Of a DNA stretch of 64,000 nucleotides, positions 4,380-59,981 are shown one piece after another. The DNA is from an uncultured Chloroflexia bacterium (lineage in GTDB: Bacteria; Chloroflexota; Dehalococcoidia; GIF9; UBA5629): the NCBI GenBank assembly GCA_963705905.1, contig OY970123.1, forward strand, positions 839,921 to 903,920, written 5' to 3'. The position numbers were made by a program, and so were the translations under genes. Within the stretch, counting starts at the first letter, position 1. Each line of letters starts with the position of its first letter. Under the pieces are notes generated by a model. That model had not been told where the DNA came from, searched no databases, and saw nothing but the letters and a program-made list of their open reading frames with translations.

Positions 4380-4393
4380 CATTTTCTGCGGCC

Positions 4394-19540: not shown

Positions 19541-19847
19541 TTTACTATGCCATCAAAAAAGCCGATATTTGCCCTGTATGTAAGAAGAAGGCCTACAAAT
19601 AGCCCTGGGGAAAAACCTTTGTTTAGCCAACCATATAAACAGTGGCAACTGGCACAAAGGTAAGGGTAGATTGGAAATATGCCAAGAAAAACAATCTCCG
19701 CTATATGCAAATATTGAGCTATTTTATGAGAGCTTATCTCAAATTGCTTCTGTCTGGGGTTTGGTGATTACATTGGGGAAGGCAATATGTCGATTTCAAT
19801 GTGAGCGGTAAAATGGGGAATTCATTCCGGACTTGATAGCGTCTGGT

Positions 19848-20852: not shown

Positions 20853-21070
20853 CTTTCAAAGTTCCCGTTATATAGCTACATCATGCAGATCGTGCTTTAA
20901 AACTTCCTGTATTATACTGCTGCTAATGTTGTGTTATCCATTAAACTATCCGTCAATTTATATAATTGTTAGGGTAACTTAATATAGAGAATGTGATATT
21001 TACCCATTTTAACTGAGGATAGATCGTTATTCCTTATTAGGGTGGTCCATATAACTAAGCAGGATTATTG

Positions 21071-21625: not shown

Positions 21626-22973
21626 TGTTCAAGCTACCAGATAGATAGTAATAGCCTAATCCAAAACCAGTTTTCTGTATCTCTTTAGTTAGGGCTGCGG
21701 CATTAGAAACGCGTTTAGCTGTCGTTTTTCCATTAGCACAAGAGATAACGATGATTTCCTTTGGTACCGCATTATTTAGTAAGGTCTCACTATGCGTGGA
21801 CATAAGGATGAATCTATCTTTTTTCATGTGCTCCCGCATAATCAATATTATTTCAGATAGCATATGTGGATGAAGATAATTCTCGGGTTCCTCAATAGCG
21901 AACATATTTTGATTTGTTAAAATGATTGTTATCAATGCTATCCATTTCACTGTACCATCCGACATGGAAGAAAGAGGGAGTATAGTGGGCTTACCGGTAC
22001 CTTTTAGAGTAACTCGAACCTGCAATTGCTGGTCAAATGGATTGTTCGAAACAACGATATTAGATATCCATTCGTTTGCAAGCTGCGTGTATCGCAAAAT
22101 ATTTGCTGTAGAAGCATCACTTCTGGGGATTGCATGCCGATAGGTTGGCAGATACCTATAGGTTGGCAGATAATCGTACTTTTGCCGGTTGACGCCCTCG
22201 TATTTTTGTATCGCGTACAATGTCGAATATAAACCAGAGCCATCTTTACTGACACCTGCTTTTTTAGCACTATCATCTGGCATCTTTGCTTTAGATGGTT
22301 CAATGTTATAGACTTCACCACCTCTGATGTCATTATTAATGGGATAATAGAAGTCACGAATAATCATACTCAAGACAGTAATGACGCTTTGGTCTGGATC
22401 CAGGTTGTCGAGATATTGTATTATCCTTCTTTTAATATCCGCTTTACCATATTTACGTCTCGCATCATAAGGATTATTTAATTCCTTTATTTTTTCGTTG
22501 ATAGCGGAGATTGTAGGCTTGGATTTTGAATTATCATCTACATTTAACGCAATTGCTAAATCGTAATCGCTACTTCGTATCTTGTTTATAGAGTCGACTG
22601 CTCTTAGTTTTAACGATAACTTTTGTTCCGAATAAATTATTGGCTCTCCAGATACGCGTAAAAGTATTCTGAACGAATATTGATAGTATAAATACTTTCT
22701 AGCCTCAAGTTTCACCGTGCCAGTTATCGTTGCACTGATGTTATCCTGATATTCTTTTTCTCCTATTTTCCGAAATATAGTACCTGCACCTCCAGATTTA
22801 CTGATGGCATCTGAAATATGCATATACTGGAGATAACCGAGGAATTCGAAAAAAGAAATAATATTTGTCTTGCCTGATCCATTGGGTCCAACAAGGATAT
22901 TTAGACCCGATTTCAGATCCATTTCGAATTTATGAAGAGTCTTGAAACCGTTTACTTTAATATGTTTAATCAT
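21618..22973 (-). CDS. split ABC-type ATPase (AAA_21/AAA_15 family; OLD/AbiLi/AriA-like)
   Basis: Walker A GPNGSGKT near the N-terminus, long insert, then IEEPENYLHPHM and H-loop LMSTHSE at the C-terminus; 451 aa. Confidence 0.8.
   Translation of the reverse strand: MIKHIKVNGFKTLHKFEMDLKSGLNILVGPNGSGKTNIISFFEFLGYLQYMHISDAISKSGGAGTIFRKIGEKEYQDNISATITGTVKLEARKYLYYQYSFRILLRVSGEPIIYSEQKLSLKLRAVDSINKIRSSDYDLAIALNVDDNSKSKPTISAINEKIKELNNPYDARRKYGKADIKRRIIQYLDNLDPDQSVITVLSMIIRDFYYPINNDIRGGEVYNIEPSKAKMPDDSAKKAGVSKDGSGLYSTLYAIQKYEGVNRQKYDYLPTYRYLPTYRHAIPRSDASTANILRYTQLANEWISNIVVSNNPFDQQLQVRVTLKGTGKPTILPLSSMSDGTVKWIALITIILTNQNMFAIEEPENYLHPHMLSEIILIMREHMKKDRFILMSTHSETLLNNAVPKEIIVISCANGKTTAKRVSNAAALTKEIQKTGFGLGYYYLSGSLNNE
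22139..22174 (-). repeat. in-frame 18-bp tandem duplication inside the ATPase gene
   Basis: tatctgccaacctatagg / tatctgccaacctatcgg encodes YLPTYR YLPTYR. Confidence 0.6.
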
Positions 22974-23340
22974 TTAAAATTCCCGAAGAACCTATATTCG
23001 TGTGCATAATTACCATAATATTCGATATTATATCACTGTGTCATTGCGGATTACAGTGTATATTTTATCATTTGTAGTCATAGATTCGAATCAGGTTTAA
23101 CCTTACTAAGCTGCTCAAGCACTACTAATATCCTTATAGAAACCTGATTCCTTCAAGGCTAAGGCAATATTAAGGGTAAGAAGCCGGGGCATGACTGGGC
23201 AGTCCTTAGCTTAGATTATGAAAGGAAAAGGAAGCCAAAGAAGACTATAAAATAGTTAAGCAAATAATTACGATGGGGATGAAGCTAAAGTGTTAAGCAA
23301 ATCAGGAAAACTCAGCAATCAACGCAATCGTGGATTGAAG

Positions 23341-23416
23341 TGGTGCCCCCAAGGGAATTCGAATCCCTGTGTCCAGCTTGAAAGGCTGGTGTCCTAGGCC
23401 TCTAGACGATGGGGGC
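23341..23416 (-). tRNA. tRNA-Glu (anticodon TTC)
   Basis: Reverse complement GCCCCCATCGTCTAGAGGCCTAGGACACCAGCCTTTCAAGCTGGACACAGGGATTCGAATTCCCTTGGGGGCACCA; anticodon loop CTTTCAA, acceptor GCCCCCA/TGGGGGC, encoded CCA. Confidence 0.9.
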
Positions 23417-23422
23417 ATTGAA

Positions 23423-24436
23423 TTAAGGATAGATGGGCAGGGCTTCAAGGCCCGCCGTCTCGGGAAAACCAAACATTATATTCATATTTTGAATAGCTTG
23501 TCCAGCCGCGCCCTTGACCAGGTTATCGATACAGCTTATAACTACCACGCGGCCTGTCTTCTGGTGCATAGCAGGGTATATCAGGCACAGGTTGCTGCCC
23601 CATGTCTGCTTTGTTTCAGGGGGCTGCTGCACCATGCGGGTGAAAGGCTCCTTGCGGTAGTAGTCGGCGAAGACCTTATCCAGCTCTTCTTTCCCGCCGC
23701 TGAGCTTCCCCATTTTGGCCCTGGCATAACACGTGCTCAAAATCCCGCGCGTCATGGGAACAGTGTGCGGAACGAAGGTCACCGATACGCTGCCCGAAGG
23801 GAAGAGGTTATCCAGCTCCTGTAGCATTTCCGGCTGATGCCTGTGGCCGCTCAAACTATAGGCACGCACGTTATCGCTGGCTTCGGAGAAATGCGTGGGC
23901 AGGGTCAGCGTCCGTCCCGAGCCTGAGATGCCCGACTTGCTATCGACAATCAAATCCGGCTCCACAAGGTCGAGAGCGACCAGGGGAGCGAGGGCAAGTA
24001 TGGCCGAGGTCGGATAACAGCCGGGATTGGCCACCAGGCTAGCTCCCGCTATCTTGCTGCGGTGCAATTCGGGAAGACCGTAGACAGCGGACTGCAGCAG
24101 CTCGGGCGCCGGATGAGTGAATTCATACCATTCGGGATAGCGGGCAGGGTCCTTCAGACGGAAATCGGCGCTAATATCTACTACGCGGATACCTTTCTTT
24201 AGCAGGGGCATCACCACTTCGGCGCTGGCCTTATGAGTCATGGCCGAGAAGGCCACATCCACCTTGCCCTCCATTTCCGCGGTTATAGTAAGCCCTGTGC
24301 ATTCCAGGTGGGGGAAAACCTCGCCCAGTTTTTGCCGGCGGCGCTGCGGCCTGTGACCGATACCAGCTCCACCTGAGGGTGCTGCCACAATATACGCGCC
24401 AGCTCCACGCCTGCGTATCCCGTCACATTAATAATG
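23423..24436 (-). CDS. argC: N-acetyl-gamma-glutamyl-phosphate reductase, apparent frameshift in an A5/T5 run near 24330
   Basis: GCYPTSAILALAPL active-site motif in the main ORF. The true N-terminus MNKIKAGIINVTGYAGVELAR...TGRSAAGK is upstream in another frame; one missing A in aaaaa restores KKLGEVFPHL. Confidence 0.8.
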
Positions 24437-34853: not shown

Positions 34854-36617
34854 ATGCCTTATAACCCCTTGAAAATGAGCGACTGGCAGATAGCCGAAGA
34901 GGCCGAGAAAAACATGCCCGAGCCGCTCGACTGGATAAAAAAGCTCAACCTGGAGAAAGGCGAGATCATCCCTTACGGGAAAGTTGCCAGGCTCGACTAT
35001 GCCAGGATCATGCGGCGGCTGGAAAACAAGCCGGACGGCAAATATATACAGGTCACGGGCATCACGCCCACACCCCTGGGAGAGGGCAAAAGCACCACCA
35101 CCTGCGGACTGCTGGAAGGCATGGGCAAGCGCAAATTGAACGTGGGCGGCTGCATCAGACAGCCCTCGGGCGGACCCACCATGAACATCAAGGGCACGGC
35201 CGCCGGCGGCGGCAATGCCCTGCTCATACCCATGACCGAGTTCTCCATGGGGCTGACCGGCGATATCAACGATATTACCAACGCCCACAACCTGGCCATG
35301 GTAGCAGTCACGGCGCGTATGCAGCACGAGCGGAACTACGATGACCGCAAGCTGATGACGCTTTCCAATATGAAAAGGCTCGACATCGACCCAACACGAA
35401 TCGAGATGGGCTGGGTGATGGACTTCTGCGCGCAGAGCCTGCGCAACATCGTCATCGGCATCGGCGGCAAGATGGACGGCTACACTATGCAGTCCAAGTT
35501 CCAGATCGCGGTCAGCTCCGAGCTGATGGCTCTGCTGGCCATCGTCAAAGACCTGGCCGACCTGCGCCACCGTATGGACCGCATCACGGTAGCCTACAGC
35601 AAGCACGGCGACCCCATCACCACGGGGGACCTGCAGGTGGGCGGCGCCATGACGGCTCTGATGCGTAATACGATCAACCCCACCCTTTGCTGCACGGCGG
35701 AATACCAGCCCCTCATGGTGCATACCGGCCCCTTCGCCAACATCGCCCTGGGGCAATCGTCCATCATCGCCGACCGTATAGGCCTCAAGATGTTCGACTA
35801 TCACGTCACCGAGAGCGGCTTTGCCGCCGATATCGGCTTCGAGAAATTCTGCAACGTGAAATGCAGGCTGAGCGATCTCAAGCCGCATGCCTCGGTGCTG
35901 GTAGCAACCGTGCGCGCCCTCAAGATGCACGGCGGCGGCCCGGTCATTGTGCCCGGACTGCCCATGCCCGGGGAATATTTGAAGGAAGACCTGGGCCTGC
36001 TGGAGAAAGGCATCCCCAACATGCTCCACCATATTAAGATCATTAAGGAGGCCGGGGTCTGCCCGGTGGTCTGCATCAACGTTTTCCATTCCGATACCAA
36101 AGCCGAGATAGCTATGGTCAAGAAGGCCGCCGAGCTGGCGGGGGCGCGCTGCGCCGTTTCGCGGCACTGGGAGTTCGGAGGTGAAGGCGCCCTGGAGTTG
36201 GCGGACGTAGTTAAAGAAGCCTGCAACGACGATAATGAGTTCAAATTCCTCTACCCGCCCGAGATGAAGCTGCGTGACAGGGTAGATAAGATCGCCCGCG
36301 AAGTCTACGGAGCGGATGGGACATCCTGGTCGCTGGCTGCCGAAACCAGGGCCAAGGCTTTGGAAGCCGATCCTGAGTACGACGACTATGCCACTATCAT
36401 GGTCAAGACCCCGCTCAGCCTGAGCCACGATCCTGCGCTCAAAGGCGTGCCCAAGGGCTGGATACTGCCTATCCGGGATATTATGGTCTATTCAGGCGCC
36501 AGGTTCCTCTGCTTCTTCGCCGGAGAGGTCAACCTTATGCCCGGCACGGGCTCCAACCCGGCCTTCCGCCGCATCGACATCGACCCCCATACCGGCAAAG
36601 TGCACGGGATATTCTAA
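34854..36617 (+). CDS. fhs: formate--tetrahydrofolate ligase
   Basis: 587 aa; [14 protein letters not shown]-loop and overall FTHFS pattern. Confidence 0.95.
36558..36617 (+). repeat. direct repeat copy 1 (native fhs 3-prime end)
   Basis: ccggccttccgccgcatcgacatcgacccccataccggcaaagtgcacgggatattctaa; re-occurs at 39936-39995 with 3 mismatches. Confidence 0.8.
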
Positions 36618-38047
36618 GAAGTTGCTAAAGCATAAAATTTGACGTCCTGCTTTAGCAACGGTAATTCAGAGGGAAATAATAATCCATCATCCCTTGAACC
36701 ATTGATGCCCTCCATAAGCTCTTCATTGAACAGAGTGAAAAAATTGTTGATCAGTTCCCGGTCCTGCTTGCTGTCACTGAGGTTCAAGCTAAAGGTGATG
36801 GTATCGTTGAAGGTGCTGAACCCCATCTGAAAATGCGCAGGGTATTTTATCGAGCCGGTCATGAAGGCATCGGCCACCGGCGTACCGCCGAATACCAGAA
36901 GGTTTTTGTCGATCCTGTCTAAATTTGTCATAGCGAAGAGCGGGTAATGCATGTTCTCACGGATTAATTTTTTGGCCCTGGCATAGGGGAACAATTGGAA
37001 TACCAGAGGCAAGGTCATCAGGCCGCCGAGCCCGGGGAAATGCCTCTTCCTTGCTTCCATTACCTCATGCACCCGCCCAGCGGTATCGTCGAATGCCTCA
37101 GCCTCGCCGGGTATGATATCGCACAAAATGAACGAGGAGAGGTTACAGATCGCCTGAGCCTTTTTGCCGGGCAGGTAGCGCCTGAGGTCGACCGTGCACG
37201 AGATGTTCAGCGGAACATCCCGCTTAATCTCCAGCAGACGGTAGAGAGCGCGGTAATAGGCGGCCAGCACCACGTCGTTGACGGTGAAATGCTTATCCGC
37301 ACAATATTTTTTCAGCAATAAATAACCGGGCCGCTCCAGCCTGCAAAGCTGCATATAGGGCCGCAGTCCGCCTTCCTCATTTCCTCCATCCCTTAATACA
37401 TATCCGCTGTCTTTCATATTGCCGGGCAAAAATAACAGCCTGGCCCTATCTATGAGATTGAGCTGATTAAAAATCTGGCAGACGCTGCGGGAACCGCCGA
37501 CACTGGATGCAGGACGGTAATGAGGGTCTCTCATCAGGCTGGTATAAGTTGAAGCCAGCAGGTACATATATTGCTTAAACCCGGCTGCATCGCTGACCAT
37601 GTGGTTGATGACCACGTTCAGCACGTCGTGTTGCGGGCCACGCGCCAGGGTTACCTGCACCTGGGGGCCTTCCAGGGCCGCTGTCCTGGAGACCAGCAGC
37701 CGCTTCAGGTTCTCATCTATATCATCGCTCTCGATAAAGGAGAACGCCTTATCATGATCAGCCCTGTCGATGCACTGCCAGTACGGACGGCGGCTGTCTT
37801 CCACGAAGCGGCAGCCCAGTATTGGCACGTCCTCCATTGTCAGCAACACGGCCTTTTTCAGCACATCACGGTCCAGCTTTCCGTCTAAGCTGACCACGCA
37901 GTGTACCTGGTGGTCATTGTACCTGTATTCCTCGAGCAGAAACTGCAGCTTATCGAACGATTCCGCCTTGAAACGCTTTTCGCTACCGCCGCCCGTTTTA
38001 TTTAACGCGGTTTTTTCTTCCATGAGGTCTTTTTTCATCTTCAACAC
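36614..38047 (-). CDS. condensation-domain / WS-DGAT superfamily acyltransferase-like protein
   Basis: 477 aa; HxxxD motif in [11 protein letters not shown] at the typical position; no further assignment possible. Confidence 0.4.
36621..36659. terminator. bidirectional hairpin between convergent fhs and acyltransferase-like gene
   Basis: Perfect 12-bp inverted repeat gttgctaaagca ... tgctttagcaac with a 15-nt loop. Confidence 0.4.
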
Positions 38048-38351
38048 TCCTTTAATAATTTGCGCGCTGTTTTACGCTTACACCAGGATTTTACTATTTT
38101 CGTTTTAATAATGCAAATCAGTAATTATTATATTGCTTTTTAAACTTATTATAATTATAATATTAAATATCAGTGGGCTCCTGTCGGCCATTATGCATAA
38201 GTGCTACCTGCTGATAATAACAGGCGCACACAAGCGGGTGCAGGCATGCCGGAAGCCGCTTGATTAATGCAGCAACAATAATGAGAGATTTTGTTTAATT
38301 TATTGATTTTTCCAAGAAATAGACTAATATATCGGGTAACAGGAGGATGCT

Positions 38352-38774
38352 ATGCAGAAACTATTCAGCCAGTGCCCTGCTTGCGGTGGCCAGCTTGTCG
38401 TTACAGAGTGCAAATGTACCAACTGCCAGCTACAAATGCGTGGTGAATTCAGGTCAGGGCCGCTGGCCGCGCTCACCGATGATGAGATGACCTTTACAAA
38501 GGTCTTCCTGTCCACCCGCGGCAATCTCAGTGAAGTTGAGAGGATCCTGGGTATTTCTTATCCCACCATCCGCAACAAGCTGGATGAAATTAACAATGCC
38601 ATCAATCGTATCGACGTGGCTTCAGTGTCCCGGCGGGCAAAAGGTGAGGCTGCGCCGGACGTAAGTCCCGATGCTGCTGCAGACATCCGGAAGGACATTT
38701 TGCAGAAGGTTGCGGACGGCCAACTATCGCCGGCGGAAGCGGTGCAGAAGCTGCGGGAAACCGGAGAAGACTGA
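38352..38774 (+). CDS. DUF2089-type zinc-ribbon/HTH protein
   Basis: CPACGGQLVVTECKCTNCQLQMRGEF zinc ribbon then helix-turn-helix-like segment (LGISYPTIRNKL). Confidence 0.55.
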   Translation: MQKLFSQCPACGGQLVVTECKCTNCQLQMRGEFRSGPLAALTDDEMTFTKVFLSTRGNLSEVERILGISYPTIRNKLDEINNAINRIDVASVSRRAKGEAAPDVSPDAAADIRKDILQKVADGQLSPAEAVQKLRETGED

Positions 38775-39907
38775 TGTCCGGCACGGAACGCACATGGACG
38801 GCTGACGCTTTCGACGCGGTCGCCGTCAGGGCACGTGACTGCAAGGTTGAGATCGAGGGGACCGAGGATGACGATGTCCGCCTCGAGGCCGACCACGGGC
38901 CGGATTTCAGTTTGGAGATAACCGGCCGCCGGCTGCAGCTCGGCACATCCATGCAAAAGGGCGAAGCAAAGTTCACCCTGCATCTGCCAAAGCATAAAGC
39001 CTGGGCAGTGGACCTGTTTTCAGGGCAGACGCAATTCAAAGCCGTGAATATCAGGGCACGCCTGAACTTAATGCCCGGCAAGGGTGAAATCCAGGTCGAG
39101 AACTGCAGCGGGGCCCTTTCTGTTATATCCGGCAAGGTGAATATCCGGTTGAAGCTTTTCAGCGAAACTGAAATACCGGAATTGCCACTTCTTGCCGCGG
39201 AATGGCCGTTGATCAACCTTGGAGACCGTGAAAGCTGGCCGGACTGGTGGACGGGTTATTGGGACCAGATGGGCGGGGAGTTCGATGAAAGGATCTTAAA
39301 ACGGTTTTTCAGTCAAGCTAAAAATAAAAAGAGAATTTCCGGTATTAACCTCCAGGCAGGCAAGGGTGACCTGCAACTGGAAGATATAACGGTCAGTGAA
39401 TTTATCGTCAGGTGCGGTAAGGGCGATGTGAAGCTGAAGGGGGGACGTGTGGCGGACTTCGACCTTGACCTGCTTAAAGGCAATTTTGAATGTGAATCAT
39501 GTATGCCTGAGGGTGATTGGAATATCAGTGTAAACCGCGGCGACATCCACCTTTCCCTGCCTGCTGATACAAGGGCACGCCTGGACGTCGCCACGCGGCA
39601 GGGTGACATCCAGTCCACCACGCCGATGGTACGCGTCACACGCCAGGGTCCCGAGGCCTGGCATGGCGGAAGGATGGTTGGCACAATGGGTACTAACCCT
39701 GAGGGAAAGATGCCCGGGGTCCACCTGGCCACTCTGCATGGAGATATTAAAATCGAGACCCGGCGTCCGCCGGGTCGCCGGGATGAGGATCAGCGGGTCG
39801 GGAACGCAGATTCATATTATACGCCGCTGTCTATTTTAAAAGCTTTAAGCGAAGGACGGATCAGCGTTGACGAAGCCGAACGGCTGTTGCATAGTTTAGA
39901 TTCTTAG
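38774..39907 (+). CDS. DUF4097-type beta-helical repeat protein (putative adhesin-like, YvlB-like)
   Basis: Repetitive G-x-V/I-x-I/L beta-strand ladder; start overlaps the DUF2089 stop (TGATG). Confidence 0.5.
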   Translation: MSGTERTWTADAFDAVAVRARDCKVEIEGTEDDDVRLEADHGPDFSLEITGRRLQLGTSMQKGEAKFTLHLPKHKAWAVDLFSGQTQFKAVNIRARLNLMPGKGEIQVENCSGALSVISGKVNIRLKLFSETEIPELPLLAAEWPLINLGDRESWPDWWTGYWDQMGGEFDERILKRFFSQAKNKKRISGINLQAGKGDLQLEDITVSEFIVRCGKGDVKLKGGRVADFDLDLLKGNFECESCMPEGDWNISVNRGDIHLSLPADTRARLDVATRQGDIQSTTPMVRVTRQGPEAWHGGRMVGTMGTNPEGKMPGVHLATLHGDIKIETRRPPGRRDEDQRVGNADSYYTPLSILKALSEGRISVDEAERLLHSLDS

Positions 39908-40028: not shown

Positions 40029-42605
40029 TTAGACTTTAAAGGTCAGGTTCAGGCTATGGGCAAGCTCTACGCTGTCTCCATTCTCAATCGTATGTTTGCC
40101 GCTGCCCTTGATTTGTGATCCGTTTAGCGTGGTGCCATTTGTGCTTCCGAGGTCCTGTATATAGTACAGGCCGTTTTCATAAGTGACCAGGATATGCTGC
40201 CGGGAGATTGTGTCGGTCTTGTCCGGTGACATCAGCGGGCGGAAATCTTTCCGGCCCAACGGCCTGCCGGCAACCGGCATAGTAATCCCTGCCGACGATA
40301 CAAATTTGGCCGGAAGCCCGATTTCAACGATTGTTGTCATTGGCGTCAGTGTAGCCGGTTGTGTAGCCGGGATGGTGGTGGCTGAGGTAAAGTAGCCTGT
40401 GTTTGTGCCGGTGCCCGACGCATGGGCCACAGGAGGTTTTTTCACGATCAGGGCGGTTATGACCACAGACGCAACAGCGGCCAATCCGGTTAGCAGCAGG
40501 TACAGCGGCCACAGGTTGACGGCCGTAGCTTTGCTGTTGCCGGTTCCATTGGCATTCAAGACGTTCCCGATACTGTTAATGAGCTGGCTGGCATCTAACG
40601 TGCCGCCGGATGAAGTTCCGGAATTATCCGTGTCTACATTTACGCCGGTGCTAACGGCGTATGCAGGAGGAGTGTAGGAAGCTACGCTAGGCGCAACGGT
40701 GACAGTAGTGCTGGCGCTAATTGTGCCCGCGCCGTTGTAGGCCGACACAGTATATGTAGTTGTGGAGGCAGGAGTCACATCGACTGAGCCGGTATTGGCG
40801 ACTGATCCCACCACCGGGGATATAGTGACCGTATCCGCGTTATTTACAGTCCAGGACAATGTAACTGACTGGCCGGGCTGAACGTAATTGGGGTTGGCCG
40901 TGAAGGAACTGATCACCGACGCCCCATACGTTTCACCATAGCTGCTGAGGTACGGTGCGACCGTTACAATTGTGCTGGCATTTACCGCACCCTGGCTGTT
41001 GTAGGCGTACAGTGTATATGTGGTCGTGTAAGCAGGCGTTACGGCTAACGAGCCGGTGTTGTCGACCGATCCCACTGTTGGAGATATCGTGACAGCGCTT
41101 GCGCCGCTCACATTCCATAACAATGTGGCTGCTTGCCCCGATTGAATGTAATCGGGGCTGGCCGTGAATGAACCGATCACCGGCGCATATGTGGACAGCG
41201 TATAATCAGGACCATACGGATAAGTGGGGTAGGTTGGGTTATCCTGTGGGGGGTAGGTCGGATTAGTCTGCGGGGGCCAGGTCGGATTAGTCTGCGGGGT
41301 CCAGTTATGGGGTGTAAATGGCCCATGACGGCCCGTACTATTATCCGAGGGTGTCGGGAAAGGCGGGAAATGCGTAGTGCTGTTATCCCAGGACGGGAAA
41401 TGCGGAAAATTCACCGTGCTGTTATCCCAGGATGGTGGAAAATGTGGAAAATTCACTGTTCCATTATCCGAGGGCGCCGGGAAAGGCGGAAGATGCGCCG
41501 TTCCGTTATCCCAGGACGGGGGGAAATGGTGCCGCGATGGATCGGTGCCGGCTGCGGCCGGAGCCGGGAGAATTCCAGCTGCCTGAGCTATCGGCGGTAA
41601 AACGTCGGAAACCGTCGGTGAGGTTGAAGTGGTAACCGCGAGAACAGGATCCGTCGACAAACCTGTTGTAGAGCTTACTTCAGGAGTAGCTGGCACCGCT
41701 AGAGCGGGTGCAGTTACTACTGTCGCCGAAGCAAGGGGTGGTGGAGGAGGAGCCGGCGGCTCAGTAGTCGTCAACTGTGCGGTCTGATTATCCGAAAGCT
41801 GACCGGCGGCCGCTTGACCCGGCAGAGCATCCGGCGCAGCGGTTGTGCTTGTAGCTGTCGTTATCGCCGGTACTGGAGCAGGTGTGTCTGCGACTACCGT
41901 TGTTGGAGTGGTAGCTGTCGTCGCCGTTACGGGTGCCAGAGCGGGCGTATCTGCAACTACCGTTGTTGAAGCGGTAGCCGTCGTCTCAGTTGCGGGCGCC
42001 GGAGCGGGTGTATCTGCGACTACCGTTGTTGGAACGGTATCTGTCGTCGCCGGTGCGGGCGCCGTAGCGGGTGTGTCTGCGACTACCGTTGTTGGAGGGG
42101 TAGCTGTTGTCGCAGTTGCCGGCACTGGAGCCGGTGTGTCTGCGACTACCGTTGTTGGAACGGTAGCTGTTGTCGCAGTTGCGGGCATTGGAGCGGGTGT
42201 ATCTGCAACTGCCGTTGTTGGAGAGGTGGCTGCGGTCGCCGTTGCGGGCGCTGGAGCGGGTGTGTCTGCGACTACCGCTGTCGGAGCGGTATCTGTCGCC
42301 GCCGGTGCCGGCGCTGGAGCGGGTGTGTCTGCGACTGCCGTTGTTGGAGAGGTGGCTGCGGTCGCCGTTGCGGGCGCCGGAGCGGGTGTGTCTGCGACTG
42401 CCGCTGTTGGAGCAGTATCTGTCGCCGCCGGTGCCGGCGCCGGAGTGACTGCATCCGTTGTCGCTACGGTCTGATTATCCGAAAGCTGATTTACGGCCGC
42501 TTGACCGGGTATCAAATCCGCCATGGCATACGCCGGTGCCAGAGGGACCAGCAGCAAGCAGCCGACCAATAATGCCGCTGCCATGAAGAGCAATGCTTTT
42601 TTCAT
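40029..42605 (-). CDS. large single-pass membrane protein: signal peptide, Ala/Thr/Pro tandem repeats, two Ig-like domains, TM helix, cytoplasmic C-terminal FHA domain
   Basis: N-terminal MKKALLFMAAALLVGCLLL; ~21-aa ADTPAPAPATATAATSPTTAV repeats; NSTVNFPHFPPSWD repeats; two ~90-aa paralogous beta domains; TM LWPLYLLLTGLAAVASVVITALIV; C-terminal FHA-like domain (GRPLGR...ISRQHILV...YIQDLGSTNGTTLNG). Confidence 0.75.
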   Translation of the reverse strand: MKKALLFMAAALLVGCLLLVPLAPAYAMADLIPGQAAVNQLSDNQTVATTDAVTPAPAPAATDTAPTAAVADTPAPAPATATAATSPTTAVADTPAPAPAPAATDTAPTAVVADTPAPAPATATAATSPTTAVADTPAPMPATATTATVPTTVVADTPAPVPATATTATPPTTVVADTPATAPAPATTDTVPTTVVADTPAPAPATETTATASTTVVADTPALAPVTATTATTPTTVVADTPAPVPAITTATSTTAAPDALPGQAAAGQLSDNQTAQLTTTEPPAPPPPPLASATVVTAPALAVPATPEVSSTTGLSTDPVLAVTTSTSPTVSDVLPPIAQAAGILPAPAAAGTDPSRHHFPPSWDNGTAHLPPFPAPSDNGTVNFPHFPPSWDNSTVNFPHFPSWDNSTTHFPPFPTPSDNSTGRHGPFTPHNWTPQTNPTWPPQTNPTYPPQDNPTYPTYPYGPDYTLSTYAPVIGSFTASPDYIQSGQAATLLWNVSGASAVTISPTVGSVDNTGSLAVTPAYTTTYTLYAYNSQGAVNASTIVTVAPYLSSYGETYGASVISSFTANPNYVQPGQSVTLSWTVNNADTVTISPVVGSVANTGSVDVTPASTTTYTVSAYNGAGTISASTTVTVAPSVASYTPPAYAVSTGVNVDTDNSGTSSGGTLDASQLINSIGNVLNANGTGNSKATAVNLWPLYLLLTGLAAVASVVITALIVKKPPVAHASGTGTNTGYFTSATTIPATQPATLTPMTTIVEIGLPAKFVSSAGITMPVAGRPLGRKDFRPLMSPDKTDTISRQHILVTYENGLYYIQDLGSTNGTTLNGSQIKGSGKHTIENGDSVELAHSLNLTFKV
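41835..42480. repeat. ~63-bp tandem repeat array (about 10 units) inside the FHA-protein gene
   Basis: Recurrent gctgtcgt.gccg.t.c.ggagc.ggtgtgtctgcgactaccgttgttgga..ggta units; also generates the spurious 209-aa plus-strand ORF 41845-42474. Confidence 0.75.
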
Positions 42606-42908
42606 TTCTTATTTGCCTGCTAATAATAATCTAGTACAAGAATGTTAACTAAAGATTTTTCCGTCTATCTTTAATTGAACATCCTTTATAATTAAATCTA
42701 CTCCGGTCTGCACTGTCATGCTTGACTTCAGTCTGACAATCAATTGACAGTTAACTGACAAAAATACCGGAGCTGGCAGGATAATAAGAAAGAAAATGCG
42801 GACTCAGCGGCAAACTGCCGGGAGATAAAGAGAGAAGAGGTTAGACCCCCAAGATGGAAAGGCGCATTGCTTTGACTTCTCCGAATAGGTAAAAATCGCA
42901 CCTAAAGG

Positions 42909-43367
42909 TTACTGAATCAAACCTGTTCTGGGATCACCCCACGTGCTGAAATCCATTACTGCATCGGAGCCATCCGTAAACCAGCCTTTAATTATGTAAG
43001 TGTCATCCGTCTTGACAATAGGATGCCCGAACCACGTGGCCGTGTTCTCGACGGTTGTGCTGTTCGGGAGCAGGACCGAGTATATAAACGCATCTGCCGA
43101 ATTCGGATCGAAACCTGCCGTTGCCCACTGCCGCATGTAATCCATCCTGTCGGCAGTGTCGGACTGGCTCGAAAGGAAGGTCTGATTGATATACCCGTTA
43201 GTATATATATCCGCTACATACCTCAGTGCCTGGTTCTCGGTGACGGCCATATTTGACTTCAGCGCATATACCGTAATAGCAGCCGGCCCCTGCGCCGAAA
43301 CAATTGAAGGTGTAACAAACAGGATCAACAACAGTGCCAGGTTAAGCAGGACAACCAATTTTTTCAT
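42909..43367 (-). CDS. small secreted protein, hypothetical
   Basis: Signal peptide MKKLVVLLNLALLLILFVTPSIVSAQG; 152 aa. Confidence 0.45.
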   Translation of the reverse strand: MKKLVVLLNLALLLILFVTPSIVSAQGPAAITVYALKSNMAVTENQALRYVADIYTNGYINQTFLSSQSDTADRMDYMRQWATAGFDPNSADAFIYSVLLPNSTTVENTATWFGHPIVKTDDTYIIKGWFTDGSDAVMDFSTWGDPRTGLIQ

Positions 43368-53934: not shown

Positions 53935-54993
53935 CTATTTGTAAAACCTCAATGATTTAATCTCTTGAATTATTGGCTGTGGCCTTCGCCCGCCACCCTT
54001 GCTCTTTGGGACATGCTTAATGCCAGTGCGTCTTTCCGTTAAGAGCCTACGCTTGTGTAATCTTGAATCAGCCTGTTTCCTTTCCCTATCTGTAAACCTG
54101 ACATATGGCAAAGGTGAAACATCAAACGAAGCTCTTGGCAATGTCAATTTAGCCATTTCGGGAGTGCATCTTATCAATACTTCCCAATCTTTATATGGGA
54201 ATTGTATTTGAGCCTTATTTGCAGGCGTAGTGCCGATCGTTTCATGTGGTCGGAAATAGTTATAATTTACTAGGAAGCCGTCAAGTAGCAACTGCGCCGA
54301 TTCAGGGCTTTTAAGGTCTCTCATGACTTTTGTGCGTTCTTTGATAGTGCCCTGCATCCGCTCGATGATGTTGTTGTTCGGCCTAGCTGTGAATTTCTTG
54401 ACTTGCAAATGCTTTGCTTTGTCTCCAAAGGTATGCCGGATGCCGTAGACATATGCTTCCATATGGTCGGTCATAATAACTTTAGGTATACGACCAGTTC
54501 GAGCATAGGCTTCCTTCATAACCTCGTGGACATCTTCTACTCTGCGAGTCAGAGATAAAAACGAAGCTATCAAGAACCTCGTCTTGACATCAATCACATC
54601 AAGAAGCCAATATTGTTTCCCTGCTACATTTATTACGGTCTCATCGGCTAACCAAACATAACCTACTTCTGGCTTATATCGATTGGTTATATTGACCGCA
54701 TCTTTGGTAAACCTTTCTACCCAGTTATAGATTGCAAAATCGGATAGGTCTAAACCATATATTTGTTTTAGTTCTTGCTTAATGTCATTGACCGACATGC
54801 CCTTGTAAAACATCGAGACCGCCGCCGAGACCGCACTGGCGGGCGTTTTCATGTGGATTAACGCATCTTTAAGATTGAACCTGCGCTTGCAGGATCGGCA
54901 CAGGTAGTATTGCTCACCTACGTTAGTGCCATCCTTCACGATGTCATCTGAATTGCAGTATTTGCAGGCAATCTCGCTCACGAGAAATTCCAT
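53935..54993 (-). CDS. DDE transposase, IS6/IS26-like with N-terminal zinc ribbon
   Basis: CKYCNSDDIVKDG...YLCRSCKRRF ribbon; DDE region WLADETVINVAGKQYWLLDVIDVKTRFLIASFLSLTRR ... VIMTDHMEAY ... NNIIERMQGTIKER. Confidence 0.7.
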   Translation of the reverse strand: MEFLVSEIACKYCNSDDIVKDGTNVGEQYYLCRSCKRRFNLKDALIHMKTPASAVSAAVSMFYKGMSVNDIKQELKQIYGLDLSDFAIYNWVERFTKDAVNITNRYKPEVGYVWLADETVINVAGKQYWLLDVIDVKTRFLIASFLSLTRRVEDVHEVMKEAYARTGRIPKVIMTDHMEAYVYGIRHTFGDKAKHLQVKKFTARPNNNIIERMQGTIKERTKVMRDLKSPESAQLLLDGFLVNYNYFRPHETIGTTPANKAQIQFPYKDWEVLIRCTPEMAKLTLPRASFDVSPLPYVRFTDRERKQADSRLHKRRLLTERRTGIKHVPKSKGGGRRPQPIIQEIKSLRFYK

Positions 54994-55771: not shown

Positions 55772-56482
55772 ATGAATCATAATAATCATTCTCCCACAAT
55801 CATTGCTGTAATCCCCTGCCTGAATGAAGAAAGGTTTATCGGCGGCGTTGTAGCCAGGGCCGTAAAATACGTAAACCGGGTGATAGTCGTGGATGATGGC
55901 TCCAGCGATCAAACTTCGCAAGAAGCTATTAAGGCCGGAGCCGAGGTCATCCGGCACCCGGCCAGCCGGGGCGCCGGAGCTGCGACCAAAACAGGACTGG
56001 AAGCTGCGCTCAAGAGCGGCGCAGACATTATCGTCACTTTGGACGGCGATAACCAGCATGACCCCGATGAAATCCCTAACGTTCTCAAGCCTTTTGCCAA
56101 CGGTGAAGCTGACCTCGTCATAGGGTCACGCTTTCTTAAAGAGGCCTGCGTGCCCTTTTTCCGCAAGCTCGGAATCGATTTAATCACCGGGCTTTATAAC
56201 GCCGGACACAAAGAGAAGATCGTGGACGGGCAGAGTGGTTTCCGCGCCTATAACAGGAGGGCGGCAGAGGCCATGAACATCACCTACCCTGGCTTCGGAT
56301 TCAGCATCCAGACCCTGGTACAGGCACGCAAAAAAGGGCTGAAAATTACAGAGGCGCCCATATCCTGCATTTATCACGATGCAGGTTCGACCGAACACCC
56401 GTTTGTACATGGCCTGACCGTTGCGCTGGCCGTTATTAAAATCAGAATGAGGGAAGAATTCTTCAAAACAGGTAAAAGCTGA
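55772..56482 (+). CDS. family 2 glycosyltransferase (polyprenol-phosphate sugar transferase-like)
   Basis: IIAVIPCLNEE ... VIVVDDGSSD ... DGD pattern. Confidence 0.8.
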   Translation: MNHNNHSPTIIAVIPCLNEERFIGGVVARAVKYVNRVIVVDDGSSDQTSQEAIKAGAEVIRHPASRGAGAATKTGLEAALKSGADIIVTLDGDNQHDPDEIPNVLKPFANGEADLVIGSRFLKEACVPFFRKLGIDLITGLYNAGHKEKIVDGQSGFRAYNRRAAEAMNITYPGFGFSIQTLVQARKKGLKITEAPISCIYHDAGSTEHPFVHGLTVALAVIKIRMREEFFKTGKS

Positions 56483-56487
56483 AGCAA

Positions 56488-57618
56488 ATGAAAGTCCTGT
56501 TCGTGCTGGAAAATTATTTTCCTTTCATCGGCGGGGCCGAGGTGCTGTTCAAGAACCTGTGCGAAGGCCTCGTAGCGAAAGGTTACGAGGTCACGGTGAT
56601 AACCAGCAGCCTTCCGCAAGCCCCTTACAATGAGATGGTAAACGGGGTCCAGGTGCTGCGAGTTCAAACACCACGCAAAGGATCGCGCTACTGGTTCACG
56701 TTCATGGCCATCCCGCAGGCTCTCAAACGGGTAAAAAAGTTCGACATAGTCCAGACTACGACTTATAACGGCGCTTTCCCCGCCTGGCTGGCAGCCGGGC
56801 TGGCCGGTAAAAAATGCATTATCACGGTGCATGAAATCATCGGCTCCGGTTGGAAAGATATGCAGGGCATGAACACGCTGACGGCCTGGCTGCACAGGTT
56901 TTTGGAATGGGTCATCGTTGCACTGCCTTTCAACCGCTACATGACGGTATCACAATATACTGCCAAACAGCTGGAAAAATACCATATCAGCCCTAAAAAG
57001 ATATCAACATCTTACAACGGCATCGACTACGATTTTTTTAATATCGCCAAGGCGGACAGGCCGGCCATCAGGGAAATGCTCGGGCTGAAGGACAATTTCG
57101 TTTATATGTATTTCGGCAGGCCGGGCATCTCAAAGGGAGTAGAATACCTGGTTGCGGCAGTGCCCCTCATATCCAGGGAGATCCCCGATGCCAGGCTACT
57201 CCTTTTAATGGGTAAGGAACCGGCGGAAGGCTTTAAAAAAATACTGGCGTTGGTCAAGGAAATGCAGATAGAAGCCCGGGTCTTAGTACATGATCCTGTG
57301 CCGCGTATAGAGTTGCCCGGCTACATCGCCTCCGCAGACTGTGTCGTAGTCCCTTCTATTACAGAGGGATTCGGGTTCACCGCTGCCGAAGCCTGCGCCA
57401 TGGACAGGCCGGTGGTGGTCTCGAATGTCGGATCGCTGCCCGAGATAGTGTCCGGGACATACGTCATGGTGGAGCCCAGGGACGCTGCTGCCATAGCTAA
57501 TGGCGTAATCAGGATTCATCGTGGAGAAGCGATCACCAGTGAGAAGAAACATTTTTACTGGGCCAGTTGTATCGACAACTATGATAAAATTTACCGGCAG
57601 GAAACGGGTAATTCCTGA
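56488..57618 (+). CDS. family 4 glycosyltransferase
   Basis: GT-B fold; GGAEV motif near the N-terminus, C-terminal EGFGFTAAEACAMDRPVV. Confidence 0.8.
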   Translation: MKVLFVLENYFPFIGGAEVLFKNLCEGLVAKGYEVTVITSSLPQAPYNEMVNGVQVLRVQTPRKGSRYWFTFMAIPQALKRVKKFDIVQTTTYNGAFPAWLAAGLAGKKCIITVHEIIGSGWKDMQGMNTLTAWLHRFLEWVIVALPFNRYMTVSQYTAKQLEKYHISPKKISTSYNGIDYDFFNIAKADRPAIREMLGLKDNFVYMYFGRPGISKGVEYLVAAVPLISREIPDARLLLLMGKEPAEGFKKILALVKEMQIEARVLVHDPVPRIELPGYIASADCVVVPSITEGFGFTAAEACAMDRPVVVSNVGSLPEIVSGTYVMVEPRDAAAIANGVIRIHRGEAITSEKKHFYWASCIDNYDKIYRQETGNS

Positions 57619-57632
57619 AAAGGAGAGGTAAA

Positions 57633-58856
57633 GTGAGTTTTAAAAACAAGAATGTACTCATTACGGGCATCAGCGGCTTCGTCGGCTCTTACCTGGCCGA
57701 CCATCTCATAAAACAGGGCGCTAATGTTTTCGGCCTCTTCCGCAGGCGCGCCGACGGCATATGTCCCTATAACCTTAAATGCCTGGGAATTCATGACGAT
57801 GTCGATTTAGTAGAGAGCGACCTGCTGGATATATCCAGCATAGCTTCGGCACTCGATAAGGCCAGGCCCGACTTTATCTTTCACCTGGGAGCACAATCCT
57901 TCGTGCACCGGTCCTTCGTCAGTCCCAGCGAGACTATGGACATCAACTGTGCCGGCACCAGCAACCTCCTGGAAGCAGTGCGGAACAAGGCCATCAGCCC
58001 TGTCATCGTCTTTGCCGGCAGCAGCGAAGAATACGGGCTGGTTATTTACTCGGAAGCACAGTACAAGGAGGCTAAAAAGAAATACGGGGTCATATTCCCC
58101 GAACCGGTCAAAATTCCCGAGGTACCCATCACCGAGGAAAACCCCTTGCGCCCGATGTCTCCCTACGCCGTCACCAAACTCTACGGCGACTTCCTGATGA
58201 GGAATTACCATGCCAGCTACGGGTTGAAAACTATAGTTTCAAGGGGCTTCAACCACGAGGGCGCGGGCAGGGGAATCATGTTCGTTACTTCCAACATCAC
58301 CCAGCAGGTAATGAAGCTGAAGAGGGGAGAGACCGACAAGATAGTTATCGGCAACGTCAATTCCTTCCGGGACTGGTCACACGTGACCGACATTGTCAAG
58401 GGTTACTGCCTGCTGGCCCAGAAAGGTACGTACGGTGACGTCTATAACCAGGGCTCGCAGCGCACCAACTCGGTTATCACTTACCTGCTGCTCAGCCTGG
58501 AATGCGCCGGCTATAAAGTTGAAAAAATCCAGTCTATCAAGGGCAAAAAAGTAGTCTCCAGCCCCACTGCCGCGGACAGGACCAAGTTCTCCGGGCTCAG
58601 CTTCGAAAAAACTAAAATCGACCGGATGCTGCTGGACGGCGAGATCGAGTTCAAGGCCGAAGACGGCGGGCTGAACGTCTTTACCGGCAAGGGTAAGATC
58701 AGCGTCGTCTTCGATGCGGACCGCTTCAGGCCGGCGGAAGTGCCGATACTCCTGGCCTGCACGGCCAAGATAGATAAACTGGGCTTTAAAACGGCTTACA
58801 GCCTGAGGGACATTATTACCGACCAGTTGAATTATTACCTCGACCCTTCGCGGTAG
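57633..58856 (+). CDS. NAD-dependent epimerase/dehydratase (GDP-mannose-4,6-dehydratase-like) with C-terminal extension
   Basis: VLITGISGFVGSYLADHL Rossmann motif, catalytic YAVTK; 407 aa. Confidence 0.75.
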   Translation: MSFKNKNVLITGISGFVGSYLADHLIKQGANVFGLFRRRADGICPYNLKCLGIHDDVDLVESDLLDISSIASALDKARPDFIFHLGAQSFVHRSFVSPSETMDINCAGTSNLLEAVRNKAISPVIVFAGSSEEYGLVIYSEAQYKEAKKKYGVIFPEPVKIPEVPITEENPLRPMSPYAVTKLYGDFLMRNYHASYGLKTIVSRGFNHEGAGRGIMFVTSNITQQVMKLKRGETDKIVIGNVNSFRDWSHVTDIVKGYCLLAQKGTYGDVYNQGSQRTNSVITYLLLSLECAGYKVEKIQSIKGKKVVSSPTAADRTKFSGLSFEKTKIDRMLLDGEIEFKAEDGGLNVFTGKGKISVVFDADRFRPAEVPILLACTAKIDKLGFKTAYSLRDIITDQLNYYLDPSR

Positions 58857-58898
58857 TGTCCGGAGGAGAGTCACTATTCCGGCTTGCAGGAATTTTCA

Positions 58899-59981
58899 AT
58901 GAAAATAGCTTTGCTAACGCCCACTTTTTCCTGCTTCAGCGGCATCGACAGGGTGGTCGACTGGCAGGCACGCAAGCTGATAGAAAGGGGCGACACGCTA
59001 GACATATTCGCCTTTGATTCCGATATGCAGCCTTCTTCGCAGGCCACGCTCCATATCCTGGGTATGCCAAAACTCCCCTTCTGGCAGCGCCTGTACAGGC
59101 TTCTTCTGCCCCTGGACCTCATTAAAAACGGGCGGACCGTCTCGAAGCTCGGCAAATACGATGTCGTCTACAGCCACCAGTACCCGATGAACTGGCTGGC
59201 ATACCTGGCCAAAAGGAAATTCGGACTGAAATATATTTACTATGACTATGGAATCGCTCCTCCCGGGGCCTTCGGAAACTGCGCGGAGAAGGCCTATATT
59301 TCTATTTTCACCATGTTTGCCAACCTGACGGCAAGAAAGGCCGACGGAGCTGTCTCCATCAGCCGCTACCTGCAGGAAAGGCTGAAGCAGGATACCGGGT
59401 TGACCAGCGAGGTAGTATATCCGAGGATAGATGCGGGCAGGTTCCATGAGGGCATCGATGGGGTGTCCATCAGGCAGAAATACGGGCTGGGAAGCGGTCC
59501 GGTGGTCCTTTACGTGGGCAGGGTTTCACCGCATAAGGGCATCCACCTGCTTATGGATGCATTCAGGCAGGTTAAAAGCAGCTTGCCAGGGGCGCACCTG
59601 CTCATCGTGGGAAAACATACATTCGATAGCTACTCGCGCCGCCTCCAAGCCGGGCAGGATGACAGCGTGATTTTTACCGGCTATGTGCCGGATGATGAGA
59701 TGCCCCAATACTACGCAGCCTGCGATATCTACGCTACGGCTACGTTATGGGAAGGCTTCGACCTTCCCCTGGCTGAAGCGGGGGCCTGCGGCAAGCCGGC
59801 GGTAGCATTCGCGATCGGGCCCCATCCCGAGATAACGGTAGACGGCAAAACGGGGTTCCTGGTACAACCCGGGGATTCGGATGCGATGGCAAATGCCATC
59901 AGGCAGCTGATAAATGACGAAAACCTGCGGCGGGAGATGGGCGGTCAGGCAGCTAAATTCATCCGGGAGAATTTTACTTAA
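58899..59981 (+). CDS. family 4 glycosyltransferase
   Basis: Start at the MKIALLTP ATG; C-terminal EGFDLPLAEAGACGKPAVA. Confidence 0.8.
   Translation: MKIALLTPTFSCFSGIDRVVDWQARKLIERGDTLDIFAFDSDMQPSSQATLHILGMPKLPFWQRLYRLLLPLDLIKNGRTVSKLGKYDVVYSHQYPMNWLAYLAKRKFGLKYIYYDYGIAPPGAFGNCAEKAYISIFTMFANLTARKADGAVSISRYLQERLKQDTGLTSEVVYPRIDAGRFHEGIDGVSIRQKYGLGSGPVVLYVGRVSPHKGIHLLMDAFRQVKSSLPGAHLLIVGKHTFDSYSRRLQAGQDDSVIFTGYVPDDEMPQYYAACDIYATATLWEGFDLPLAEAGACGKPAVAFAIGPHPEITVDGKTGFLVQPGDSDAMANAIRQLINDENLRREMGGQAAKFIRENFT

Follow-up and report, generated by a model that had tools for sequence, protein, structure and literature searches.

A membrane FHA gene of an uncultured Dehalococcoidia bacterium is a candidate displaced member of a Ser/Thr-kinase cluster with a shared operator-like element

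Introduction

What does a membrane-anchored FHA protein do in a genomic region in which no Ser/Thr kinase gene is found? This question is raised by a gene of an uncultured bacterium of the Dehalococcoidia (GTDB lineage GIF9; UBA5629), located in a stretch of 64,000 nucleotides of contig OY970123.1 (assembly GCA_963705905.1, positions 839,921 to 903,920), which as a whole is called the window here. The gene is a complete coding sequence at 40029..42605 on the (-) strand, and its product is a type-I (N-out, C-in) bitopic membrane FHA protein of 858 aa. A sequence-only reading of the same DNA had already described a membrane protein of this length and position, which the list of open reading frames (ORFs) and the ATG start bear out, and had proposed that it signals to an unseen Ser/Thr kinase.

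Signalling by FHA proteins and Hanks kinases has been studied in detail in Actinobacteria and secretion systems. Dehalococcoidia are widespread, hard to culture and known mainly from metagenomes, and literature searches with exact and broader terms found no description of such signalling in this class, the broader ones giving other organisms only. Here we report that the window gene is related to the last gene of a seven-gene Ser/Thr-kinase cluster of Dehalococcoidia, for which no published description was found, and that it has kept an operator-like element shared with this cluster.

Results

The window protein groups with one FHA paralogue of a kinase cluster

A search with the C-terminal 391 residues of the window protein returned 554 proteins, and most of the annotated matches were named 'FHA domain-containing protein [Dehalococcoidia bacterium]'. 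The family core comprises one Ig-like domain, a transmembrane (TM) helix, a linker and an FHA domain in about 280-400 aa, and the low-complexity region is dispensable in many members. When genomes and metagenomes were scanned with the family alignment, generic FHA matches dominated, and only 5 and 9 loci held family members.

In the loci of relatives, members of this family lie within a recurring gene cluster, the order of which was counted where the gene called T and its upstream flank lie on the same contig. A divergently transcribed regulator, in which an FHA domain is joined to a Trans_reg_C winged helix, is followed by genes for a Zn-ribbon-FHA protein, a PP2C phosphatase, a Hanks kinase and three further FHA proteins, F373, F517 and T. 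The complete cluster with T in last place was found in L007, L008, L009, L012, L015, L094-L096, L171 and L174. The cluster is also present in L013, L014 and L098, where the contig stops short of the T position, while only F517 followed by T is visible in L092 and L097, and L172 and L173 hold cluster fragments that end before the T position. Four of these loci (L171, L172, L173 and L174) are L008-like, and two of the four, L171 and L174, are complete with their own T. Examined by Pfam, L009 encodes Trans_reg_C+FHA, DZR+FHA, PP2C and Pkinase proteins and three FHA proteins.

F373 (~370 aa), F517 (~517 aa) and T are built alike, with a signal peptide, an ectodomain, one TM helix and a C-terminal FHA domain, and the cluster kinase has an N-terminal TM anchor only, without an ectodomain. 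The kinase has more than 200 orthologues, and its catalytic Lys and Glu, the HRD..N and DFG motifs and the activation-loop Thr were invariant in 10 sequences.

The window protein shared 50-56% identity with the cluster T proteins and 39% with F517. A neighbour-joining tree of the C-terminal 165 residues showed three paralogue clades, and the window protein was placed in the T clade together with the solo copies of L006, L002, L001 and L011, beside the cluster-embedded T of L008. Judged by its sequence, the window protein is a T paralogue of an unnamed Dehalococcoidia family defined in the present analysis. Unlike the cluster T genes, neither the window gene nor those of L001, L002, L006 and L011 lies directly downstream of F517. 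The window was searched for kinase and phosphatase genes with an HRDxKxxN regular expression, by tblastn with the cluster proteins and by Pfam scans of 29 further ORFs. No second FHA gene was found in the 64 kb, and among the 120 kinase matches listed none lay on the long contigs of close relatives. Because the gene falls into the T clade, yet no kinase, PP2C or second FHA gene accompanies it in the window, it is best read as a T gene relocated away from the cluster. As for the phosphothreonine signalling through an unseen Ser/Thr kinase proposed earlier, the cluster loci outside the window argue for it, while the window itself supplies neither the kinase nor a PP2C phosphatase.

Two side observations were made on the cluster. 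F373 and F517 share an unannotated ectodomain with the motifs GWLYIYEYYP, W.AYKWQL and G.W..GPF, which had no Pfam match and was present in the cluster loci L007-L009, L012-L015, L094-L096, L171 and L174; it may be a new cluster-specific extracellular sensor domain. Loci of the L008-like subgroup have an insertion between F373 and the operator of F517 (L008 7506-8240, L173 3417-4160 and L174 7351-7953). It holds a gene for a MerR-family protein whose C-terminal domain is Rv1828-like and, in L008 and L173, a small ferredoxin gene. The MerR-family protein is an alternative candidate regulator in this subgroup only.

An operator-like element is shared by the window gene and the cluster

Upstream of the window gene, at 42718..42763 on the (-) strand, lies an operator-like element of four direct repeats spaced by 11 bp, which reads TGTCAG-N5-TGTCAA-N5-TGTCAG-N5-AGTCAAGCA, begins 155 nt before the ATG and thus spans about 110-155 nt upstream of the gene. 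No such four-fold repeat is expected in shuffles of the window. A position weight matrix was built from 15 sites in other loci, with the window and L006 excluded. With this matrix the window site scored 53.6 bits and was the only match above 8 bits in the 64 kb; the background of 1.73 Mb of unrelated loci gave 3 weak matches, the best of 12.9 bits.

Among the solo T genes, those of L001, L002 and L006 carry the same element 155-156 nt before the start codon. In 13 cluster loci it precedes F517, at a distance of 104-112 nt wherever the annotated or ATG start of F517 is clear, and in 4 loci it lies in the divergent promoter region of the regulator. Its distance from the start codon varies little. 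The window gene therefore carries the four-copy, 11-bp-spaced TGTCAG operator that is specific to the cluster. Winged helices of the OmpR/PhoB type bind direct repeats spaced 10-11 bp. Since the FHA+Trans_reg_C regulator is the sole protein of the cluster with an OmpR/PhoB-type winged helix, it is the candidate binder of the TGTCAG repeats. The displaced T gene appears to remain in the regulon of the cluster, and co-regulation with the cluster would be expected because the gene has kept the operator.

The FHA domain looks competent and follows a threonine-rich linker

The FHA domain occupies aa 767-857 (40035..40307, (-) strand). The PF00498 profile matched aa 798-848 with 48.5 bits against a gathering cutoff of 20.7, AlphaFold2 modelled the domain at a pLDDT (predicted local distance difference test) above 90, and Foldseek matched the C-terminus to 3poa, the FHA domain of Rv0020c, with a TM-score of 0.71. 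Profile search and fold match thus confirm the C-terminal FHA domain named in the sequence-only reading. Residues G784, R785, S801, R802, H804, N823, G824 and T825 were invariant in 106 homologues, and the domain looks competent for phosphothreonine binding. Compared with the close relative L006, it was 100% identical and the linker before it 96% identical, while the ectodomain repeats differed by whole units.

This linker is a disordered, threonine-rich cytoplasmic segment of 45 aa (aa 722-766, 40308..40442, (-) strand; pLDDT <50), as delimited by the homologue columns and the model. It contains the near-invariant T743, T748 and T757, the last of them within the motif P-x-T757-T-[PI]-[VLI]. 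T757 was Thr in 104 of the 106 homologues, with V, L or I at +3 in 95 and with Thr or Ser as the next residue in 97, and T743 and T748 were each conserved in more than 85%. A common FHA ligand motif is pT-x-x-[hydrophobic or acidic], and FHA domains dock on autophosphorylated Hanks kinases. T757 is a predicted phosphorylation site. The 10 residues between T757 and the first FHA strand are short for an intramolecular, GarA-like fold-back in cis, which makes trans binding the more plausible mode.

The same region of the protein gave weak matches to secretion-machine families, and we considered whether the protein could be a basal component of such a machine, either YscD/EscD-like of a type III or TagH/Fha-like of a type VI secretion system. 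Over the FHA region, PF16697 scored 18.8 bits and TIGR03354 31.3 bits, far below the respective cutoffs of 33.2 and 120.25. The orientation is opposite to that of YscD, in which the FHA domain is N-terminal, and neither the window nor any related locus yielded a secretion-system gene. A role in secretion, suggested in the earlier reading, is thus not borne out, and we regard this explanation as highly unlikely.

A signal peptide and one membrane helix place the FHA domain in the cytoplasm

The signal peptide covers aa 1-27 (42525..42605, (-) strand) and consists of MKK, a hydrophobic core and AYA followed by M; it is supported by hydropathy, by an AlphaFold2 helix at aa 3-18 and by conservation in orthologues. 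A lipoprotein N-terminus was considered on account of a lipobox look-alike, LVGC, and was rejected: orthologues carry Ser in place of the Cys, and the hydrophobic run extends beyond it. The single TM helix (aa 699-721, 40443..40511, (-) strand) was found by hydropathy and by AlphaFold2, at block-mean pLDDT values of about 61-87. It is followed by KKP, a position that reads R/K-R/K-P across the 106 homologues with the Pro invariant. Lys and Arg number 3 in the ectodomain of ~670 aa and 10 in the tail. The signal peptide, the single TM helix, the KKP and the Lys/Arg distribution place the FHA domain on the cytoplasmic side, in agreement with the sequence-only reading, and an uncleaved signal peptide would leave it inside all the same.

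Two Ig-like domains lie outside the membrane, domain 1 at aa 476-550 (40956..41180, (-) strand) and domain 2 at aa 564-637 (40695..40916, (-) strand). Both were modelled at pLDDT >90 in the AlphaFold2 domain model, which was made from an alignment of 62 sequences. Foldseek matched the pair to the Ig tandems of titin Z1Z2 and of receptor-type protein tyrosine phosphatase (sigma) Ig1-2, with E values of 5e-7 to 1e-5 and a probability of 1.00, and both domains have the immunoglobulin-like beta-sandwich fold expected of I-set-type domains. No Pfam family matched them at threshold, the only hit being Ig_ADGRF3 at E = 0.72, and relatives with many copies of the module carry precomputed PF07679 (Ig) matches. 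Two Ig-like domains of ~90 aa had been proposed; their number and fold hold, and their size is about 75 aa each. Domain 2 is the Ig module conserved across the family. Domain 1 is an extra one, since by the family consensus many members have a single Ig-like domain. Between domain 2 and the membrane lies a disordered spacer of 61 aa (aa 638-698, 40512..40694, (-) strand), in which pLDDT is mostly low and falls below 50 at aa 649-695; in the domain model the linkers at about 650-695 and 727-762 both stay below 50. As a separate observation, the Ig-like module is among the commonest repeat units of giant proteins of 1,000-5,400 aa (P0128-P0268), with up to 47 copies.

The distal ectodomain is repeat-rich and disordered

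The part of the protein distal to the Ig-like domains is made up largely of repeats. An array of T/P/A-rich units of 21 aa (63 bp) covers aa 50-259 (41829..42458, (-) strand), is disordered and comprises ~10 units. Tandem Repeats Finder reported 9.1 copies with 83% matches at 41875-42445; at the protein level, nine clean units are anchored by ADTP, and degenerate ones at the ends bring the total to about 10.6. The array is bracketed by a duplicated LPGQAAxxQLSDNQT motif, a direct repeat pair of 85 nt with 71% identity. The first copy is motif A (LIPGQAAVNQLSDNQT, aa 31-46, 42468..42515, (-) strand), which is present in orthologues, and the second is motif B (LPGQAAAGQLSDNQT, aa 261-275, 41781..41825, (-) strand).

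Inspection unit by unit and Tandem Repeats Finder both support the ~10 tandem 63-bp units of the earlier description, which had also called them perfect. They are not: identity between neighbouring units is 73-90%, units 2 and 4 agree best, at 61 of 63 positions, and no exact direct repeat is longer than 44 nt. The comparison of copy number that had been suggested was run between relatives and gave 10.6 units in the window and 6.5 in L006, with both frames intact. Among the orthologues the number ranges from 1.5 to 10.6 (1.5-7.2 in those other than the window and L006), always in frame. The length variation between lineages is real, and the array has the in-frame copy-number differences between close relatives of a variable-number tandem repeat, without its near-identical, slippage-prone units. 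Slippage, the route proposed for this hypervariability, is disfavoured by the divergence of the units, and because of that divergence unequal recombination is the more likely route of unit gain and loss.

Next to the array lies a disordered spacer rich in S, T and A with a poly-Pro run (aa 276-355, 41541..41780, (-) strand), in which nearly all residues have pLDDT <50, with a short rise near the poly-Pro run at aa 282-291. It corresponds to the Pro-rich spacer noted before. The second repeat type noted there was also found, as units of 14 aa (42 bp) that each contain a D-N-[GS]-T sequon (N-x-T) and an FPxFP motif (aa 359-424, 41334..41531, (-) strand); Tandem Repeats Finder gave 4.1 copies with 73% matches at 41356-41522. 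A third array, missing from that reading, consists of 8-aa (24-bp) units of PQTNPT[WY]P (aa 436-460, 41226..41300, (-) strand; array 41226-41304 by Tandem Repeats Finder). Compared with the window, L006 has one 14-aa unit more and one 8-aa unit fewer.

The full-length AlphaFold2 model showed no secondary structure from the signal-peptide helix to residue 476. A hidden folded domain in the N-terminal 470 aa was considered and rejected, as pLDDT is below 50 for almost all of aa 21-470. The repeats had been taken for a stalk; this does not hold, since they lie N-terminal to the Ig-like domains and are thus membrane-distal. Instead, these ~450 acidic, nearly Lys/Arg-free and T/P/A-rich residues are predicted to form an extended, possibly glycosylated brush.

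Such an ectodomain could also be the working part of the protein. The protein would then be a structural surface protein or adhesin, in which the glycosylated brush and the Ig-like domains serve as a coat or in cell-cell or cell-mineral contact, and the FHA domain would only anchor or cluster it. The ~450 aa of disordered, acidic, T/P-rich sequence, the 11 N-x-S/T sequons of the ectodomain, a unit number that varies among relatives as in many surface proteins, and a glycosyltransferase cluster 13 kb away are consistent with this. However, the cytoplasmic linker and FHA domain are the best-conserved parts (96-100% identical to L006), many members do without the low-complexity region and retain a core of ~280-400 aa, and the gene shares cluster and operator with a kinase and a phosphatase. 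We consider an adhesin improbable and favour a partner or substrate of the cluster kinase.

The glycosylation gene cluster lies at 55772-62306 on the (+) strand and encodes GT2, GT4, a GDP-mannose-dehydratase-like epimerase, GT1 and a DUF2206 membrane protein. Its genes are possible candidates for glycosylating surface proteins, including the T-type FHA protein. The idea that the 774-aa DUF2206 protein is a relative of oligosaccharyltransferases found no support, with no PDB or NCBIfam match. A DDE transposase gene (IS240/rve family, 53935-54993, (-) strand) marks a mobile element near this cluster.

The long reading frame is the real one

Public gene calls for the window gene and its relatives are 348, 364 and 83 aa long. 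Taken at face value, they would make the long frame an artefact, with the first 470 codons untranslated and a short product of 348-364 aa as the true one. Beneath the 348-aa call, the DNA does not differ from that of the window (100% identity) and has no frameshift, and the short calls begin within Ig-like domain 1. The full frame is open in the window, as an unbroken 777-codon frame in L006, and in six further orthologues (P0001-P0006), which are full length with the same signal peptide as the window protein; full-length orthologues measure 623-777 aa. Over its repeat-free 3' part, the gene is ~93% identical at the nucleotide level between the window and L006. Every length difference is of whole codons or whole units, in frame. 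Finally, the contigs L003-L005, three 100%-identical short-read contigs, break off within the 63-bp array. Taken together, the identical DNA, the array-ending contigs, the starts within an Ig domain and the intact frames of L006 and the six orthologues indicate that the long frame is the real one, and a short true product is very improbable. Truncation by gene callers was also seen more widely: T-family proteins of L003-L006 and L171 and the public proteins P0009 and P0010 are cut to 83-364 aa, with starts inside an Ig domain.

Within the repeat array, an antisense ORF of 209 aa is open at 41845..42474 on the (+) strand. The earlier reading had taken it for a spurious product of the repeats, and we agree that it is a by-product of composition. 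The sense codons have C at position 2 in 81% of cases and 80% of the antisense codons start with G; codons starting with G cannot be stops, and the antisense frame stays open for this reason. L006 has no antisense ORF of at least 100 aa across the array.

Neighbourhood of the displaced gene

In the window, the gene is surrounded by genes of beta-oxidation and C1 metabolism and by a DUF2089/DUF4097 pair. Directly upstream, at 42909-43367 on the (-) strand, an ORF of 152 aa encodes a signal peptide and matched neither Pfam nor NCBIfam models; L006 has an identical copy at the same place, and L002 lacks it. A terminator-like hairpin separates it from the FHA gene. On the other side, three genes at 36614-39907, between the FHA gene and FTHFS, are inserted relative to the syntenic L002. 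One product is a Condensation/PapA5-like acyltransferase, for which all matches were weak. The other two, a Zn-ribbon-HTH protein with DUF2089 and a 'toastrack' protein with DUF4097 that weakly resembles LiaG, suggest an envelope-stress module. The literature names PapA5 among the interactors of Rv0019c, a mycobacterial FHA protein, which may be coincidence. In L002, a KaiC-like ATPase, two KaiB proteins and a PAS histidine kinase are encoded a few kb upstream of the orthologue (1704-5332), and these genes were not seen at the corresponding place in the window.

Farther away, positions 18000-24000 have a low GC content of 41-45%, compared with about 54%. This stretch encodes a TIR-domain protein (19848-20852) and an AAA_21/AbiEii-like ATPase (21618-22973), adjoins a tRNA-Glu (23341-23416) and looks like an anti-phage defence islet.

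Discussion

Our results describe a T-type membrane FHA gene that stands apart from a conserved kinase cluster and has kept its operator-like element. That the T protein is an ectodomain-bearing partner or substrate of the sensor-less membrane Hanks kinase of this cluster is, in our judgement, about evenly balanced. In such a system, F373, F517 and T would supply ectodomains to a kinase without a sensor of its own, and their FHA domains would dock on phosphothreonines of the kinase or of one another's linkers. The kinase would phosphorylate the conserved linker threonines, with T757-x-x-V as the prime candidate, and the PP2C phosphatase would reset the system. Soluble FHA proteins would carry the output, among them the FHA-winged-helix regulator, which would feed back on the operator. 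In the lineage of the window, the displaced T would work with a cluster encoded elsewhere in the genome.

Several points weigh against this account. No kinase, PP2C or FHA-winged-helix gene is present in the 64-kb window, nor within 3.5-10 kb in the solo loci L001, L002, L006 and L011, and the solo copy of L011 shows no operator at the threshold used. The whole 200 nt upstream, and not just the operator, are conserved among the four closest loci. The neighbour-joining tree carries no support values, and T757 stands merely 10 residues before the first FHA strand. It is also from sequence that we infer the operator-binding protein, the direction of information flow and the phosphorylation of T757.

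The cluster resembles known systems in part. In Mycobacterium and Corynebacterium, the cluster fhaA-fhaB-pstP-rodA-pbpA-pknA-pknB likewise places FHA genes beside a PP2C phosphatase and Hanks kinases, and FhaA and FhaB/FipA are kinase substrates that recruit phosphoproteins (PMC3989709). The Dehalococcoidia cluster lacks rodA and pbpA, its kinase has no PASTA or other ectodomain, and no pknA/pknB-rodA-pbpA neighbours were found in the window. FhaB/FipA (Rv0019c; NF049868) was among the best NCBIfam matches of the window protein, at 27.2 bits against an equivalog cutoff of 125, and differs from it by the ~670-aa ectodomain with Ig-like domains. A paper on FipA (PMC2797604) is marked as retracted and was not used.

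This likeness brings up a scaffold or substrate rather than a sensor: an FhaA- or FhaB/FipA-like membrane adaptor, phosphorylated by the kinase, would bring other phosphoproteins to places where the envelope or surface layer is assembled or the cell divides, and the ectodomain would only position it. The layout of a TM helix with a C-terminal FHA domain, the top-ranking though weak NCBIfam matches (FhaB/FipA and TagH), and a conserved Thr-rich linker typical of kinase substrates point in this direction; so do the Ig module common to giant surface proteins, which are possible envelope docking partners, and the part that FhaA and FipA play in division and in the synthesis of the cell wall (PMC3989709). 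On the other hand, the cluster is without cell-wall or division genes, unlike the actinobacterial one with rodA-pbpA, and has its own transcription-factor output and operator, and an ectodomain-less kinase with three ectodomain paralogues fits a sensory division of labour better. We regard a scaffold as possible but rather unlikely, and retain the partner or substrate of the sensor-less kinase as the working account.

In the FHA regulators GarA and OdhI, phosphorylation of an ETTS motif near the N-terminus acts as a switch. The window protein has a comparable conserved Thr-Thr pair, followed by a hydrophobic residue at +3, in the disordered stretch ahead of its FHA domain, and GarA gave weak matches in a PDB sequence search with the window protein. 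The differences are larger: the OdhI/GarA model (NF041660) scored 18.5 bits against 200, a small soluble protein stands against an 858-aa membrane protein, the short distance from the motif to the first FHA strand makes self-binding in cis doubtful, and no link to 2-oxoglutarate metabolism was found for the window protein.

EmbR of M. tuberculosis combines a winged-helix DNA-binding domain with an FHA domain and is phosphorylated by PknH. As far as the table in PMC6213207 goes, the cluster regulator is like EmbR in joining FHA and a Trans_reg_C winged helix. It differs in its N-terminal FHA domain, which reverses the order, in having no BTAD domain and in being encoded outside the window. Secretion systems offer further parallels (PMC3953482), with kinase/PP2C/FHA trios that control a membrane complex, as in the threonine-phosphorylation pathway PpkA-PppA (PP2C)-Fha1/TagH of type VI systems, and with FHA domains on bitopic membrane proteins, as in YscD/EscD of type III systems. 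The window protein differs from both in scoring below the family cutoffs, in its C-terminal FHA domain and in the lack of secretion genes around it.

Sulfolobus ArnA/ArnB with ArnC/ArnD provides another parallel, a Zn-ribbon+FHA protein encoded with a Ser/Thr kinase and a phosphatase; ArnA (5a8i) was among the PDB sequence matches to the window FHA domain and has the same Zn-ribbon+FHA layout as the product of the second gene of the cluster. The Deinococcus operon DRA0331-0334 (vWA-STK-FHA-PP2C) is likewise similar to the Dehalococcoidia kinase/PP2C/FHA cluster, from which a vWA partner is missing. Beyond what these two systems contain, the Dehalococcoidia module has three ectodomain-bearing membrane FHA proteins, and it has no archaellum or DNA-damage context. 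Plant KAPP is a membrane-tethered FHA protein that docks on phosphorylated receptor kinases, carries its own phosphatase and has no large ectodomain. The likeness to it is confined to the level of a membrane-tethered FHA domain, and the best PDB sequence match to the window FHA domain was the plant FHA domain 1uht (E = 0.0013). By these comparisons, the window protein falls below the thresholds of each named family tested and shares only the FHA logic with them.

The true architecture of this family is hidden in current databases by truncated gene calls and by short-read assemblies that break in the array. The interest of the finding lies in the cluster and its operator more than in the repeat protein that led to them. 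With a well-defined candidate operator, the regulon of the module becomes predictable from sequence alone. Only tentatively, and with clearly less than an even chance of being right, we propose a 'split receptor kinase' of Dehalococcoidia, in which a sensor-less Hanks kinase, three interchangeable ectodomain FHA proteins, phosphothreonine-FHA coupling and an FHA-winged-helix read-out would be combined with a TGTCAG operator that also controls displaced members. If this is true, ectodomain and kinase activity would reside on separate proteins joined by phosphothreonine-FHA contacts, which would be an unusual receptor design.

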